Position numbers and translations under genes: made by a program. From Trueperaceae bacterium (GTDB lineage: Bacteria; Deinococcota; Deinococci; Deinococcales; Trueperaceae): DNA of 50,194 nt. The notes below the pieces were generated by a model. It was not told the DNA's origin. It did not search any database and was given only the letters and a program-made list of their open reading frames with translations. Positions 37,947 to 48,179 of this stretch are shown piece by piece. The first letter of the stretch is position 1. Every line of letters begins with the position of its first letter. Location: positions 1-50,194 of the forward strand of contig DATGNP010000071.1 of assembly GCA_035306665.1 (NCBI GenBank), in the 5' to 3' direction.

Positions 37947-38393
37947 TCAGTCCTCCTCGGGGCTCCTGACCATCAGGAACGGCTTGTCCGCCCGGCGCAG
38001 CGCGCCCTCGGCCACCGAGCCGAACATCCAGCGGTTGAAGCCGCGGCGTCCGTGCGTGCCCATCACGACGCAGTCGTGGTCCTTGCTGGCCTCGACGATC
38101 GCCTTCACGGGGTCGCCGTCCTCGACCATCCGCGTCGTGGCCGACACGCCGGCCGCCTCGGCGCGCGCCGCGGCCTCCTGGAGGATCTGCTCCCCGCTGG
38201 CCCTGAGGTCCTGGTAGAGCTGCGCGGCGTAGGGCATCGCCTCGGGCGTCGCGTACCCGCTGGTGAGGGGGTTCTCGAGCACGTGGAGGAACGTCACCCT
38301 GGCGCCGGCGAGCCGGGCGAGCTCCAGGCCCTTCTCGATGGCCTTGTCGGAGGTGCTGCTGCCGTCGGTCGGTATCAGGATCGACTCGAACAC
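37947..38393 (-). CDS. Universal stress protein (UspA family)
   Basis: The GTG at 38393 is preceded by GAGAGGAG. ILIPTDGSSTSDKA ... VVMGTHGRRGFNRWMFGSVAE is a USP signature. Confidence 0.8.
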   Translation of the reverse strand: MFESILIPTDGSSTSDKAIEKGLELARLAGARVTFLHVLENPLTSGYATPEAMPYAAQLYQDLRASGEQILQEAAARAEAAGVSATTRMVEDGDPVKAIVEASKDHDCVVMGTHGRRGFNRWMFGSVAEGALRRADKPFLMVRSPEED

Positions 38394-38530
38394 GGTGATA
38401 CTCCTCTCACGACCATCGTAATGCCGCGCCACGGGACGTCCGTCCCCCACGCTCCCGTATCATGAGTCGACCCCCGGCGGCAGCCGGCGAGGGGAGCGCG
38501 GAGCACTCGGGCCGCGCCGCTGGAGGACCC

Positions 38531-39367
38531 ATGCGCATCCTGCACCCGACTGACTTCTCGCGCACGGCCGAGAAGGCGCTCATCGTGGCGCGCGACCTGG
38601 CGGACCGCCTCGGCGGTTCCCTGCACGTCGTGCACGTGCAGACGCGGTTCGAGGAGACGCTCGGCGCGGTGCGCCTCCGGCCGCACCTCGACAACGTCAA
38701 CCCCGAGCTGGAGCGGCGCCTCGAGGAGGCACGCCGCGAGGAGGTGCAGCGGCTCAACGACATGCTGCGCAGCCTCGCCAGCCCGAACGGGACGTACGAG
38801 CTGCGGTGGGGCGACCCCCTGCCTGAGCTGCTCGCCATGCAGGACGACTTCGACCTGGTCGTGATGGGCGCGCACGGCTCCGACCGGCTCGACAGCTTCT
38901 TCCTCGGCGGCGTGGCCGGGCGGTTCCTGCGCCGCACCCGCGTGCCCGTGATCACCGTGCGCGAGGAGAGCACGACGACGAGCGTGCGGCGCGCTCTGGT
39001 CGCTACCGACTTCAGCCTGGCCGCCGACGGGGCCGTCGCGGCGGCGCGCCAGCTGGGGGAGCACGGCGTGAGGCTCGTGCTCTGCCACGTCGTCGACGAC
39101 CCGCGCTTCCGCGACGACCCCGCCTACATCAACACCGTCACCGACTCGCTGAACCTCCTGGGGGAGGGCTTCGAGCGGCACGTGATCCGCTACGGCGACC
39201 CGGCGAAGGAGCTGCCCGCCGCCGCGGGCGAGGTCGGCGCCGACCTGATCGTCATCGGGCTCAAGCAGCAGCGCGGTGCGATCGGCCTCCTGCTGGGCAG
39301 CCGCGTCGACGCGCTGATCCGCTCTAGCGCCGTCCCCGTCTTAGCCGTGCCCACAGAGGTCGACTGA
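38531..39367 (+). CDS. Universal stress protein, tandem-domain type
   Basis: The ATG at 38531 follows GGAGGA. Two USP modules are present: ILHPTDFS ... VVMGAHGSDRLDSFFLGGVAG, and ALVATDFS ... IVIGLKQQRGAIGLLLGSRVD. Confidence 0.8.
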   Translation: MRILHPTDFSRTAEKALIVARDLADRLGGSLHVVHVQTRFEETLGAVRLRPHLDNVNPELERRLEEARREEVQRLNDMLRSLASPNGTYELRWGDPLPELLAMQDDFDLVVMGAHGSDRLDSFFLGGVAGRFLRRTRVPVITVREESTTTSVRRALVATDFSLAADGAVAAARQLGEHGVRLVLCHVVDDPRFRDDPAYINTVTDSLNLLGEGFERHVIRYGDPAKELPAAAGEVGADLIVIGLKQQRGAIGLLLGSRVDALIRSSAVPVLAVPTEVD

Positions 39368-44392: not shown

Positions 44393-44690
44393 GCGGGTTA
44401 CGCGCCATGACCGGCCCGGTATGCCTTACGGTAGGCCCAAAGAACGATGATAACCCGCATCCGCGGGCCGCAATAGGACGCACGACCATACTTGGGTCCT
44501 ACGCCATGGCGTAGCATCGTAGGCGAAGGAGGTTCTGTTATAGACGAACAGACCCACTTCTTAGGAGAGCGGCCCCAGTCCCACTAGAGGCTCGACCGAG
44601 TCACCCGCGGCCCAGACGCCGAGAACCGGGAACCGACGGAGCACGAAAAGGCGACGGGGTCGTTCTTCATTGTTGCGCCGCGTAGCCCTG
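44393..44690. ncRNA. Candidate unclassified structured RNA in a locally low-GC segment
   Basis: My hand count over 44421-44560 gives roughly 55-60% GC, in an otherwise much GC-richer window. Two long-range helices are nested: 44395-44404 pairs with 44679-88 (10 bp), and 44440-48 pairs with 44659-67 (9 bp). Several local hairpins and mutually exclusive alternative pairings are also present. There is no credible ORF and no match to any RNA family I can recognise. G-U pairs slightly favour the plus strand. Confidence 0.3.
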
Positions 44691-44888: not shown

Positions 44889-45125
44889 ATGGCTTACGTC
44901 ATCGCCGAGCCCTGCATCGGCACGAAGGACGCCTCCTGCGTCGACGTCTGCCCCGTCGAGTGCATCTACGAGGCCGACGACCAGTTCTACATCCACCCCG
45001 AGGAGTGCATCGACTGCGGGGCCTGCGTCCCGGCCTGCCCGGTCGACGCGATCTTCCCCGAGATCGACGTGCCCGCCGAGTGGGAGACGTACATCGAGAA
45101 GAACGCCCGACTCTCGGGCCTCTGA
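44889..45125 (+). CDS. fdxA: 7Fe ferredoxin ([3Fe-4S][4Fe-4S], FdxA type)
   Basis: The ATG follows GGAGAGGAAG. MAYVIAEPCIGTKDASCVDVCPVECIY ... HPEECIDCGACVPACPVDAI. The translation is very close to the Thermus ferredoxin sequence as I remember it. Confidence 0.9.
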   Translation: MAYVIAEPCIGTKDASCVDVCPVECIYEADDQFYIHPEECIDCGACVPACPVDAIFPEIDVPAEWETYIEKNARLSGL

Positions 45126-45314
45126 GGCTCGCCCGGCCCGACGGCCGGGAGGCGCGTCCGGCCTAGGCGGCCCCAGGCGCGCCGCCGCGACCGGGCGCGG
45201 TGCCGGCGCCCCGCGCCCCGGCGGCCCGGCGCGGCGCGACCGCCCGCTCGCCCCTTCTCATCGCCCGACTGCCTAGCTTGGCTAGCGACGACCCTTCGAT
45301 CTCGAGGAGGTCCC

Positions 45315-46469
45315 ATGCTGGCTCCAGAGCAGGTCCGTTCCCTCTCCGAGCAGCTCGCCCCGTACGGCGACAGAGTCATCAGCCTCTACCTCGACGTCAA
45401 CCCGGCCTCCGCGGACAACCAGCGCAAGGCCTGGGTCCTGCGCGCGCGGGCGGCGATGGAGCAGCTCGGGCTGCCCAACGGCAGCGCGCGACGCATCGCC
45501 GAGCGCCTTCGGGGCCAGGTCTTCGAGGGGGCCAGGACGGTGGCGGTCTTCGCCCATCCCGACGACGAGGAGCTGTTCCACACCGTCCCCATCGAGCACA
45601 CGCTCCGCGCCGTCACGGGGCACGACGGCGCGATCGCGCGCTTCGGCGAGGCGTTCCTCGCGCCGATCCAGCTCAACCTCCTGAGGCGCCGGCCCAGCCT
45701 GGTGCTGCAGGTCGTGGGCGACCGCGTCAGGGTCTTCCTCGTCTCGCCGGGACGCATCGAGGAGCTGGCGAAGGTGCAGCAGACGTGGGACGAGACGTTC
45801 TGGCGCACCGACGAGGCGACCGGCTCGTTCAAGCCGGGCGAGACGCAGCGCGGCGGCTCGCCGAAGGACGCCTACGAGGAGCGCACGGCGGACTGGATCG
45901 CCAGGCTCTACAAGCGCGTCGCCGCCGACCTGCGCCAGCTCGTCGCGAAGCACGGCGCCGCCCGCGTGATCCTCTCGGGCACGGCCCCCGACCTCGCCGC
46001 GTTCGAGGAGCAGCTCGACCCCGCCACCGCCGCCAAGGTCACGGGCCGCATCCCGCTGCAGCCGAACCCCGAGGCCTCTGCCGGCTCCCTCCACGCGCTG
46101 TTCCTCGAGGCCGTCGCCGCCGCCGAGGAGGCCGAGGCGTCGGCCGACCTCGCGCGCGCGAAGGAGGAGGGCGTCGTCGGCGCCGAGCCGACCCTGGGCG
46201 CCGTCAACGAGAGCCGCGTCCACCTGCTGATCGTCCCCGACGTGCCTTACCAGGAGGTCTGGCGCTGCCGCGACACCGGCCGCGTGTTCGCCACGCGGGA
46301 GCGCGGGGCCGCCGAGTGTGACGGGGCCGGGCTCGAGCCCCTGCCCCTCGCCGACGCCCTGCCGCGCCTCGCCCAGGACCACGGCATGGAGCTGCGCTTC
46401 GTCAGCGGCGACGCCGACCGTCGGCTGCGCGAGGAGCTGGGGGGCCTGGCCGGCCTGCTGCGCTGGTAG
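45315..46469 (+). CDS. Bacterial eRF1/Pelota-like protein (baeRF / VLRF1-type peptidyl-tRNA hydrolase superfamily), putative
   Basis: The ATG follows GAGGAGG. The N-terminal VISLYLDVNP block is typical of bacterial eRF1-like families. The extreme C-terminus LGGLAGLLRW matches the GG(I/V)xxxLR(Y/F) ending of eRF1/Pelota domain 3. A central Gly/Gln loop PGETQRGGS is present. Confidence 0.65.
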   Translation: MLAPEQVRSLSEQLAPYGDRVISLYLDVNPASADNQRKAWVLRARAAMEQLGLPNGSARRIAERLRGQVFEGARTVAVFAHPDDEELFHTVPIEHTLRAVTGHDGAIARFGEAFLAPIQLNLLRRRPSLVLQVVGDRVRVFLVSPGRIEELAKVQQTWDETFWRTDEATGSFKPGETQRGGSPKDAYEERTADWIARLYKRVAADLRQLVAKHGAARVILSGTAPDLAAFEEQLDPATAAKVTGRIPLQPNPEASAGSLHALFLEAVAAAEEAEASADLARAKEEGVVGAEPTLGAVNESRVHLLIVPDVPYQEVWRCRDTGRVFATRERGAAECDGAGLEPLPLADALPRLAQDHGMELRFVSGDADRRLREELGGLAGLLRW

Positions 46470-47256
46470 CCGGCGGCGCGGCCCCACGCGCGGCCGCCTC
46501 CGGTCCGTCCGACCTCCCGCCGGCCGCGGCCCTGAGGTCCTCGAGCTCCACCGCCATGTCGGCGACCTGCGCCTTCGCGGCGACGACGGCGGCCTTCGCC
46601 GCCTCCAGCGAGCTCAGCGCCCTCTCCAACGCGGCCAGCGCGCCGCCGTCCTCGAGCAGCGCCCGCCGCGCCAGGCGGCGCTCGCGCCAGCGCAGCAGCG
46701 CCGCGGGCGCCCCGGCGCCGAAGCCGGCGAGCGCGGTGCCGGCCAGCACGGCGGCCAGGAGGTTGTAGAGGGTCGCGGCCGCCGGCCCGCCGCCGAGGTA
46801 GTAGTCGAGGAGCGGCGTGAGGAACGGCGCCGAGCTCACGAACGCGACGTCGATGACCGCCAGGTGGAACCGGAAGGCCGCCGCCGCCACGACGCCGACG
46901 CCCAGCCCCCACCACCCCAGGCCGGCGAGGCGCCCGCTCCTGGGGGCGCCGCCCCGCACGAGGCCGCGTAGGTCCTGCGGACCGGCGGCGCGGGCGAAGA
47001 GCGCCATGCCCACGAGCGCTCCCGCGAGGGCACCGAGGCCCACCCAGCGCCTCAGCGTCGCCGAGAGCCACGCCGTGGGGGTCAGGAACACGGCCAGCAG
47101 CGCCAGCACCGCCGGCACGAGCTGAACGACGGTGACGGCCGTGCCGTAGACGCCGAGGGCCTCCTTCAGCCACTCGTAGGCCTTGTTGCCGGCACCGATG
47201 AGCTTCTTCGGGCTAGCGCCCCTCGCCCCCCGGCTCGCGGGGCCGCGTGCTGCCAT
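46402..47256 (-). CDS. Hypothetical polytopic membrane protein with a C-terminal coiled coil and low-complexity tail
   Basis: The ATG at 47256 overlaps the stop of the upstream gene by 1 nt. Four to five TM helices are followed by ALERALSSLEAAKAAVVAAKAQVADMAVELEDL. The 3' end overlaps the convergent eRF1-like gene by 68 nt. Confidence 0.5.
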   Translation of the reverse strand: MAARGPASRGARGASPKKLIGAGNKAYEWLKEALGVYGTAVTVVQLVPAVLALLAVFLTPTAWLSATLRRWVGLGALAGALVGMALFARAAGPQDLRGLVRGGAPRSGRLAGLGWWGLGVGVVAAAAFRFHLAVIDVAFVSSAPFLTPLLDYYLGGGPAAATLYNLLAAVLAGTALAGFGAGAPAALLRWRERRLARRALLEDGGALAALERALSSLEAAKAAVVAAKAQVADMAVELEDLRAAAGGRSDGPEAAARGAAPPATSAAGRPGPPAPRAADGRRRR

Positions 47257-48179
47257 CAGGGCCTCGGGAGGAACGCCGGCAGCACCACCGTGAGGAGGTC
47301 CGCGCCGCCCGCGCCGGGCTCGCGGACCGTCAGGGTGAGGAGGTCCCGGTAGGCGGCGCCGCCCGCCGGCACGCGGACGCTCACGGCGCCCGGCGCGCGG
47401 TGCGTGACGGGCACGAACGCTCCCGTGGCGGCAGCTCGGAAGGGGCTGGGGCCGGTGACCGCGGCGTCGGCGGCGCCCGGCAGCAGGTCGAAGGCCTCCC
47501 ACGCCAGCACGAAGCGGGTGCCGTCGAGCTGTGTCGGGTCGTCGGCCGTGGCCTCGTAGACGAGCGTGAGGCCGTCCTCCCCGCGCTCGAAGCGCGACTT
47601 CACGACCAGGTCGAGCGCGACGGCGCGCCCCTGCGAGTCGACGACCGTGCCCGCTACCTCGGTACCGACGCTGGCCGCGGCGGCGCCCACGTCCGGGGAG
47701 CTGAAGGCGACGAGGCCGGGGCTGGTGACGTGGAAGGAGTCGGCGTTCAGGCCGTAGCCGATCGTGGTCTCGCCGCCGACGAAGTCACCGTCGAAGTAGC
47801 GCGCGACCTCCAGCCAGGGGCACTCCTGGTCCCGGGGGCAGCGCGCGAGCCTGGCGACGTCGACGAGGACCTCGGAGCCGGCGGCCCACCTCACGGGCGT
47901 CGGCGGGCTGCCCGGCAGGTTCCGCAGGCGGTAGGCCGTGCAAGCGCGGCCGTCGGCGGCCGTGCCGCCCAGGGACTCGAACACGAACGCGAAGCCGCCC
48001 TCCCGCGCCTCGGCGGGCGGGACGGGCAGGCTCTGGGCCACCTGGCAGGCGAGGACCGTGGCGGCCGCGTCGGGTCCGCCGGCCGCCTGACCGCCTGGGG
48101 CGGAGGCGTGGGAGACGCAGAGGAACAGCGTTGCCGCCGCCGTCAGGGCCCGTACTGCTGGGCACCGCGGGTCGGGCAT
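47256..48179 (-). CDS. Hypothetical secreted Cys-containing protein
   Basis: Signal peptide ALTAAATLFLCVSHASA. The mature part is beta-rich with six Cys and has no recognisable domain. Confidence 0.55.
   Translation of the reverse strand: MPDPRCPAVRALTAAATLFLCVSHASAPGGQAAGGPDAAATVLACQVAQSLPVPPAEAREGGFAFVFESLGGTAADGRACTAYRLRNLPGSPPTPVRWAAGSEVLVDVARLARCPRDQECPWLEVARYFDGDFVGGETTIGYGLNADSFHVTSPGLVAFSSPDVGAAAASVGTEVAGTVVDSQGRAVALDLVVKSRFERGEDGLTLVYEATADDPTQLDGTRFVLAWEAFDLLPGAADAAVTGPSPFRAAATGAFVPVTHRAPGAVSVRVPAGGAAYRDLLTLTVREPGAGGADLLTVVLPAFLPRP

Follow-up and report, generated by a model that had tools for sequence, protein, structure and literature searches.

A gene on the + strand of a 50,194-nucleotide (nt) stretch of DNA from a Trueperaceae bacterium (Deinococcota; contig DATGNP010000071.1, referred to here in its full length as the window) encodes a 384-amino-acid (aa) protein that is a bacterial member of the aeRF1 superfamily, within the baeRF-1 clade (Pfam family 10). 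We interpret it as a non-catalytic, Balon-type ribosome hibernation factor of the A site, a reading to which we assign a probability of about 70%, because the protein lies nearest to characterised hibernation factors and because NIKS and the catalytic glutamine are both missing from it. A preliminary description of the window, made from its letters alone, had placed the open reading frame (ORF) in a bacterial eRF1-like family, and profile scores, predicted fold and structural matches all bear this out; its remark that the family is mostly uncharacterised has been overtaken, since ribosome-bound structures of Balon, Msmeg1130 and Rv2629 appeared in 2024 (PMC10901736).

Family membership, predicted fold and genomic context of relatives

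Among Pfam-A models, the protein was matched best, of all baeRF families, by baeRF_family10 (PF18854; 62.3 bits against a cut-off of 27.1, aa 116–266), with lower-scoring matches to families 5 and 2 and a match to family 12 below threshold. The sole eRF1_1–3 model to match was eRF1_3, again below threshold (17.7 bits against 25.8, aa 279–384). A single-sequence search of PDB sequences gave nothing useful, profiles being required. A profile of 22 close homologues (34–100% identity, full-length coverage) recovered Msmeg1130 (8V9J, entered there as 'Ribosome hibernation factor Balon') over its full length (E 5.9e-11) and, for the middle and C-terminal domains alone, aRF1 (4AF1). When 105 family representatives were used to build a broader profile, the full-length matches were Msmeg1130 Balon (E 9.1e-29) and Rv2629 Balon (E 1e-15), while aRF1 (E 2e-14) was again confined to the middle and C-terminal domains and Psychrobacter urativorans Balon (E 4e-13) matched over the N-terminal and middle domains. 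Within a library of 1.84 billion representatives, relatives numbered 2,384 at E≤1e-3 and 152 at E≤1e-30.

An AlphaFold2 model from a 22-sequence alignment reached a predicted local distance difference test score (pLDDT) of 87.7 and a predicted template modelling (TM) score of 0.79, the sole disordered segment (pLDDT <50) being residues 167–180, in the loop considered below. Its secondary structure follows the aeRF1 plan of three eRF1-like domains, of which the N-terminal one is alpha/beta and the middle one shows three consecutive beta-strands, a long loop and a long helix. Foldseek comparison with the PDB ranked Msmeg1130 Balon first (8v9j_z and 8v9l_z; E 4.8e-18, TM 0.64/0.68), followed by mammalian and archaeal eRF1 (TM approximately 0.45–0.5) and, below the eRF1 matches, by P. 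urativorans Balon (TM 0.55–0.61) and Rv2629; Pelota/Dom34 lay far lower (TM approximately 0.3, E approximately 1e-9). The matches to eRF1 and Balon spanned approximately 400 columns.

In profile searches the N-terminal domain found its counterparts in Msmeg1130, Rv2629 and P. urativorans Balon, and did not align with that of aRF1 or eRF1. The block of this domain quoted in the preliminary description as DRVISLYLDVNPASADN does occupy aa 19–35, and the loop and C-terminal blocks quoted alongside it are likewise at the residues given for them. The conserved portion, SLYLDVNPASADN, aligns with 'SIFVKTHREHPAN' of P. urativorans Balon, and the invariant columns of the homologue alignment in this region are S23, L24, Y25, V28, N29, P30, N35, K38, R43 and R45. 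Direct reading of aa 1–125 revealed neither NIKS nor YxCxxxF. These results bear on the idea that the protein could be a class-I release factor of archaeal type that reads stop codons in addition to RF1 and RF2, as its three-domain aeRF1 architecture and C-terminal GGxxxxLR[YW] might suggest. Set against that idea, which is close to refuted, are the absence of NIKS, YxCxxxF and GGQ, an N-domain that cannot be aligned with the aRF1/eRF1 N-domains, the presence elsewhere in the genome of two RF-1-domain genes (RF1 and RF2), by which ordinary termination is covered, and the patchiness of the eRF1-like gene, which was found in 19/60 genomes and 13/36 genera of the family.

The C-terminal domain ends in REELGGLAGLLRW, whose final motif, as had been proposed, matches the ending of aRF1 domain 3; G377 was conserved in 123, and R383 in 125, of 132 family representatives (the full-length representatives closest to the 384-aa protein, on which the loop statistics below are also based). 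An insertion in this domain, at the site of the aRF1 zinc ribbon, is modelled with hairpin strands at aa 314–318 and approximately 323–325, and C318 and C335 fall on the first Cys residues of the two zinc knuckles of aRF1 (4af1). A beta-strand insert at the matching C-domain site is a property of baeRF-1 (PMC6514570). The insert probably corresponds to the hairpin by which Balon binds EF-Tu (PMC10901736), and retention of the Cys pair fits a view of the two-strand baeRF insert as a degenerate zinc ribbon.

Relatives of the gene keep company with stress genes. In 5/5 Thermus loci the order comprised clpB, a rubrerythrin-like gene (rbr), baeRF10, hsp20 and a metallophosphoesterase gene, so tightly packed that stop and start codons overlap (L054:1039-6307 in Thermus igniterrae; likewise L051, L055, L056 and L062); Meiothermus loci carried baeRF10, tandem universal stress protein (USP) genes and hsp20; and one clade of Trueperaceae paralogues adjoined miaA and dnaJ. 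In Trueperaceae orthologues of approximately 34–42% identity, a USP gene lay directly upstream of baeRF10 (L035:3511-3975; L033, L034, L036, L068, L017-L020 and L042). This context of USP, clpB and hsp20 genes matches that published for Balon (PMC10901736). None of the 53 related loci checked had an adjacent HPF/RaiA gene.

The same neighbours help in judging whether the protein might instead be a non-catalytic rescue factor of the Pelota/Dom34 kind, which would recognise stalled ribosomes and split their subunits rather than maintain long-term hibernation. The three-domain fold is shared, the Foldseek matches to Pelota are significant, and a Dom34-like non-catalytic role has been considered for baeRF families without Gln (PMC6514570). 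The TM values, however, separate Pelota widely from Balon (0.55–0.68 for the latter), and the relatives adjoin chaperone and USP genes, not genes of RNA quality control. Moreover, bacteria are not known to possess ABCE1, the splitting partner. On balance we consider a Pelota-like role quite improbable.

The loop at the catalytic site and the proposed mode of action

The preliminary description had proposed a GGQ-type loop in the middle domain, at KPGETQRGGSPKD; the location stands, whereas the catalytic Gln is absent. When aligned with 4af1 by hidden Markov model (HMM), G180-G181-S182 (45852–45860) falls on the GGQ of aRF1; in alignment with Thermus relatives, K184 falls on the Gln of the Thermus-type GGAGQ, so the two candidate Gln positions are occupied by Ser182 and Lys184 (S182-P183-K184) in a loop that reads R-G-G-S-P-K. 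A Gln is indeed present in the loop, as had been noted, but it is Q178, two residues before the Gly pair and not at the catalytic position, and orthologues below 70% identity do not retain it. Among the 132 representatives, the residue following the Gly pair was Ala in 54 and Ser in 38; Gln occurred within three positions after it in only 13; and in approximately one third the pair itself was replaced, the sequence reading RGDA, RDDA or RSDA. Loop length was 20–24 residues in 94/132. Gln does persist in some lineages: Thermus relatives, which like those in Meiothermus are core family-10 members (117 bits), read RGGAGQD, Roseithermus (L074) reads GGGQD, and some Spirochaetaceae metagenome-assembled genomes (MAGs; L046 and L072) read RGGQGKE. 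The basic helix that follows the loop has conserved R190, W194, R197 and K200 (K/R at position 200 among homologues), and the conserved arginines of this helix have been assigned to binding of large-subunit rRNA (PMC6514570).

A VLRF1 or Vms1-like identity, offered in the preliminary description as an alternative, was rejected: the acVLRF1 model of Pfam scored below threshold (19.1 bits against 27.1), the loop lacks the Gln of GxuQ/GGxSQ, and a full N-domain is present. For the same reasons the 'VLRF1' part of the public label carried by an 83%-identical homologue, 'VLRF1 family aeRF1-type release factor', is not supported by the sequence comparisons.

The principal rival to hibernation is that the protein is an active, codon-independent peptidyl-tRNA hydrolase, engaged in ribosome rescue, whose R-G-G-S loop would reach the peptidyl-transferase centre. 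Mutagenesis of RF1 and RF2 has indicated that the Gln side chain of GGQ matters less for hydrolysis than do the glycines, Gly-Gly and the Arg before it hardly vary in the Trueperaceae clade, and loop length is fairly constrained among the 132 representatives. Furthermore, family 10 was singled out by Burroughs and Aravind as the baeRF family with a conserved, possibly catalytic Gln (PMC6514570), although that well-conserved loop Gln, a descriptive trait rather than part of the Pfam definition, is absent here. Against hydrolysis stand the replacement of Gln at both candidate positions, the location and limited retention of Q178, the loss of the Gly pair in approximately one third of the family, and the fact that the nearest relatives of solved structure are hibernation factors without catalytic activity; Msmeg1130, among them, has A-G-Q at the aligned site yet stays out of the catalytic centre (PMC10901736). 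Nor is there an RtcB, nuclease or defence context: PADLOC returned no defence model for the protein, its neighbours or its paralogue, apart from a generic methyltransferase-domain match, and the conflict-and-rescue setting in which the gene had been framed finds no backing there. The conserved R-G-G loop is all that keeps the hydrolase alive as an explanation, and we regard it as unlikely.

Several observations weigh against a Balon-type hibernation factor and temper the confidence that we place in it. The NCBIfam equivalog cut-offs are far out of reach (28.6 bits where NF052288, for the MSMEG_1130 family, requires 480, and 25.6 bits where NF052289, for the Rv2629 family, requires 320), and by these scores the protein is a distant relative of both families, not an equivalog; identity in structural alignment was only 17–18% to Msmeg1130 and 12–13% to P. 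urativorans Balon. The HP motif of the Balon N-domain contacts A1492/A1913 (PMC10901736); 'THREHPAN' of P. urativorans, which aligns with 'VNPASADN' of the present protein, includes a His-Pro, possibly this motif, that is not conserved, S32-A33 being in its place (Pro occupied position 33 in 59/132 family representatives). A purely passive loop would not need the R-G-G core that is so strongly conserved in the Trueperaceae clade. Finally, within the window the gene has neither a stress gene nor an HPF gene for a neighbour, the USP genes there being 6–7 kb away (37956–38390 on the - strand and 38462–39367 on the + strand).

If the protein does act as a Balon-type hibernation factor, it would, under stress or starvation, occupy the ribosomal A site much as a tRNA does, independently of mRNA. 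The N-domain, through the SLYLDVNP block and the basic helix after it, would rest on the decoding centre but read no mRNA; in the middle domain, the loop and the Arg-rich helix would pack against 23S rRNA beside the peptidyl-transferase centre without hydrolysing peptidyl-tRNA; and the C-domain, with its predicted beta-hairpin insert, would point toward the factor-binding site, where it might contact EF-Tu. Ribosomes would thereby be both silenced and protected.

The gene, its neighbours and the genome

The positions of the features discussed are collected in Table 1. The preliminary description had remarked on a strong ribosome-binding site, and both this and the ORF hold up: the Shine-Dalgarno sequence is followed after 4 nt by ATG, and its AGGAGG core was retained in all aligned orthologous spacers. 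The window has a G+C content of 75%, with long ORFs in several frames, and the frame was judged to be coding on two grounds, namely that G+C at codon positions 1/2/3 is 0.77/0.49/0.97 and that differences from an 81%-identical orthologue (43/46/117 at positions 1/2/3) are biased to the third position. The 384-aa ORF is a real gene. Two other ORFs over the same DNA, one of 401 aa in antisense (45282–46487, -; G+C of 0.95 at first codon positions) and one of 373 aa out of frame (45200–46321, +), were rejected as high-GC artefacts, because codon-position G+C and the substitution pattern favour the 384-aa frame.

Table 1. Features of the eRF1-like gene and its upstream region (positions in the window).
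Feature	Position	Strand	Basis or remark
78-aa 7Fe-type ferredoxin gene	44889..45125	+	Fer4 matches; syntenic upstream neighbour, probably a separate transcript
GC-rich hairpin CCCGGCC-CGAC-GGCCGGG, no U-tract	45132..45149	+	Just past ferredoxin stop codon
Conserved 5′ block, CTTCTCATCGCCCGACTGCCTAGCTTGGC ... GAGGAGGTCCC	45254..45314	+	Candidate promoter or 5′ untranslated region
Shine-Dalgarno GAGGAGG	45304..45310	+	4 nt before ATG; read directly
Coding sequence, 384-aa baeRF family 10/Balon-like protein	45315..46469	+	ATG start; stop codon included
N-terminal domain, approximately aa 1–125	45315..45689	+	AlphaFold2 secondary structure; Balon-like in profile searches
Conserved block SLYLDVNPASADN (aa 23–35), then basic helix QRKAWVLRARAA	45381..45419	+	Presumed decoding-centre face
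Middle domain, RNase H-fold, aeRF1 catalytic-type, aa 116–266	45660..46112	+	Pfam baeRF_family10 envelope
Loop KPGETQRGGSPKD, aa 173–185	45831..45869	+	HMM alignment to 4af1
Basic helix after loop, AYEERTADWIARLYK, aa 186–200	45870..45914	+	Conserved R190, W194, R197, K200
C-terminal Pelota/eRF1 domain-3-like domain, aa 279–384	46149..46466	+	Weak eRF1_3 match; aligned to aRF1/eRF1 domain 3
C-domain insertion, aa 311–344, predicted beta-hairpin	46245..46346	+	Zinc-ribbon site of aRF1 (4af1 alignment)
3′-end overlap, 68 nt, with convergent membrane-protein ORF (46402–47502, -)	46402..46469	.	
C-terminal motif GGLAGLLRW	46440..46466	+	Aligns to FGGYAGILRY (aRF1) and GVAAVLRW (Msmeg1130)

Upstream, the window is ordered pgm (-), hppA (+), a spacer with a small RNA candidate at 44393–44690, and the ferredoxin gene; downstream of the eRF1-like gene are a convergent cluster of methyltransferase, secreted-protein and membrane-protein genes (-) and then a TetR operon. 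The convergent overlap with that cluster, which had been noticed earlier, is confirmed at 68 nt, and within it the + strand codes for the invariant GGLAGLLRW while the tail encoded on the minus strand is low-complexity Pro/Ala/Arg/Gly; an identical overlap was called in one orthologous contig, of 79% identity (L001), and not in another of 53% (L003).

The neighbouring ferredoxin is of the 7Fe type, as first described: besides the Fer4 matches, direct reading gives the Cys pattern C-x7-C-x3-C-P ... C-x2-C-x2-C-x3-C-P. All orthologous loci examined down to approximately 38% identity had this gene upstream and in the same orientation (28 loci, comprising 10 from family genomes and encoding contigs and 18 from further contigs, some contigs being counted twice). 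Across these loci the ferredoxin was 87–99% identical, against as little as approximately 40% for the eRF1-like protein. In orthologues of approximately 40% identity the two genes were 750–1,130 nt apart, the interval being filled by a USP gene (PF00582, 97 bits) that ended approximately 26 nt before the eRF1-like start; more widely, most of the loci with USP directly upstream of baeRF10 had it between ferredoxin and baeRF10, two of them (L020 and L042) having no ferredoxin gene. Homologues outside the clade of these orthologues had no ferredoxin neighbour. The ferredoxin adjacency is inherited Trueperaceae synteny and probably not an operon. The simplest history, read from these gene orders, would be an ancestral fdx-usp-baeRF arrangement from which the USP gene was lost in the window's lineage, leaving direct adjacency to ferredoxin as a by-product, and it is in these terms that a context initially called undescribed can be understood.

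The spacer between the two genes had no Rfam match at E≤1, no folding signal (z-score -0.39) and no sigma-70 consensus promoter, and the hairpin just past the ferredoxin gene was not called on the + strand in a terminator consensus scan; stronger hairpins were found at the same place in orthologues. The 5′ block immediately before the eRF1-like gene (approximately 60 nt) was conserved in orthologues at the level of the genus, unlike the remainder of the spacer, and since the block is single-copy in the genome, no regulon can be inferred from it.

One might nevertheless suppose that ferredoxin and the eRF1-like gene form a redox-linked dormancy pair, a proposal that is compatible with the other readings. 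The mycobacterial DosR hypoxia regulon includes both fdxA and the Balon homologue Rv2629, and the persistent same-strand adjacency in the orthologous loci is what such a pair would show. The disparity in conservation, however, gives the ferredoxin a housekeeping-like character; the GC-rich hairpin after its stop codon and the separately conserved block before the eRF1-like gene argue for independent units, as do the USP gene that intervenes in deeper-branching orthologues and the homologues outside the clade that lack the neighbour altogether. A redox pair is accordingly a doubtful proposition.

Elsewhere in the genome (355 contigs, 89% complete), a second family-10 paralogue was identified (C242:1232-2392, +; 387 aa, 84 bits, approximately 33% identical), with the loop ARGGADVD, the C-terminus GGLAGLKRF and without a Cys pair. 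It is on another contig, where a RelA/SpoT-like gene (its ACT domain) and a weak Phd-antitoxin/PIN pair precede it. No HPF/RaiA gene (PF02482) was detected in the incomplete assembly; as it was present in 58/60 family genomes, including all 3 congeners, its absence is probably an assembly gap rather than biology.

A more ambitious scheme would combine the loop and the neighbours. In it, baeRF family 10 would include a natural transition, inside a single phylum, from active to inactive proteins: members with GG(x)(x)Q (Thermus, Roseithermus and some Spirochaetaceae) could still hydrolyse peptidyl-tRNA, whereas the Trueperaceae, judging from the alignments, would have exchanged Gln for Ser and Lys and kept the R-G-G loop under strict conservation for a new role at the peptidyl-transferase centre, where it might hold A2602 or the CCA end, for example. 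The ferredoxin, USP (where present) and Balon-like genes would then constitute a co-regulated dormancy module. We think it unlikely that this scheme is correct as a whole.

Comparison with known systems

Taken as a candidate Balon-type hibernation factor, the protein has its best match, both by sequence profile and by structure, in Msmeg1130 of Mycobacterium smegmatis (8V9J/8V9L; NF052288), with which it shares three domains, an SLY(F/L)..(D/N)P block, a beta-strand insert in the C-domain and an ending in ...LRW. It differs from Msmeg1130 in the loop, which is RGGS here and RAGQ there, and in retaining two Cys in the C-domain insert. Likeness to P. urativorans Balon (8RD8/8RDV/8RDW) and M. tuberculosis Rv2629 (8V9K) extends to the fold, the lack of NIKS and GGQ, and the stress context of relatives, although identity is only 12–17% and the lasso loop and bL27 trap are unrecognisable by sequence. 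As to the traits by which Balon-type proteins are told apart, the GGQ is absent in that GGS takes its place, with the Gly-Gly pair retained, and a C-domain hairpin is predicted at aa 314–325.

The comparison with aRF1/eRF1 (4AF1, 1DT9) is one of shared architecture: the middle and C-terminal domains align, a loop occupies the GGQ site, GGxAGxLR[YW] is present and a Cys pair lies at the zinc-ribbon site. NIKS, YxCxxxF and Gln are nonetheless missing, the N-domain is unalignable, and what remains of the zinc ribbon is a hairpin with 2 Cys, a retained pair that supports interpretation of the Balon hairpin as a degenerate zinc ribbon. Within PF18854 itself, the Trueperaceae, with Lys/Arg and Ser/Ala in the loop, differ from those members in Thermus, Roseithermus and some Spirochaetaceae that have the loop Gln.

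The findings extend the Balon/baeRF-1 family to a lineage of Deinococcota, in the Trueperaceae, with a pair of paralogues per genome, correct a public 'VLRF1 release factor' label, and strengthen the link to stress through the USP, Hsp20 and ClpB contexts. They leave the current understanding of the family unchanged, the protein being a fairly ordinary new member. In a family predicted to be catalytic, the Trueperaceae clade has lost Gln and kept Gly-Gly; members that retain Gln (Thermus, Roseithermus and Spirochaetaceae MAGs) would be the best candidates for a bacterial aeRF1 peptidyl-tRNA hydrolase, if one exists, and Thermus GGAGQ and Trueperaceae GGSPK make up a natural pair with which peptidyl-tRNA hydrolysis by bacterial aeRF1 homologues could be tested.

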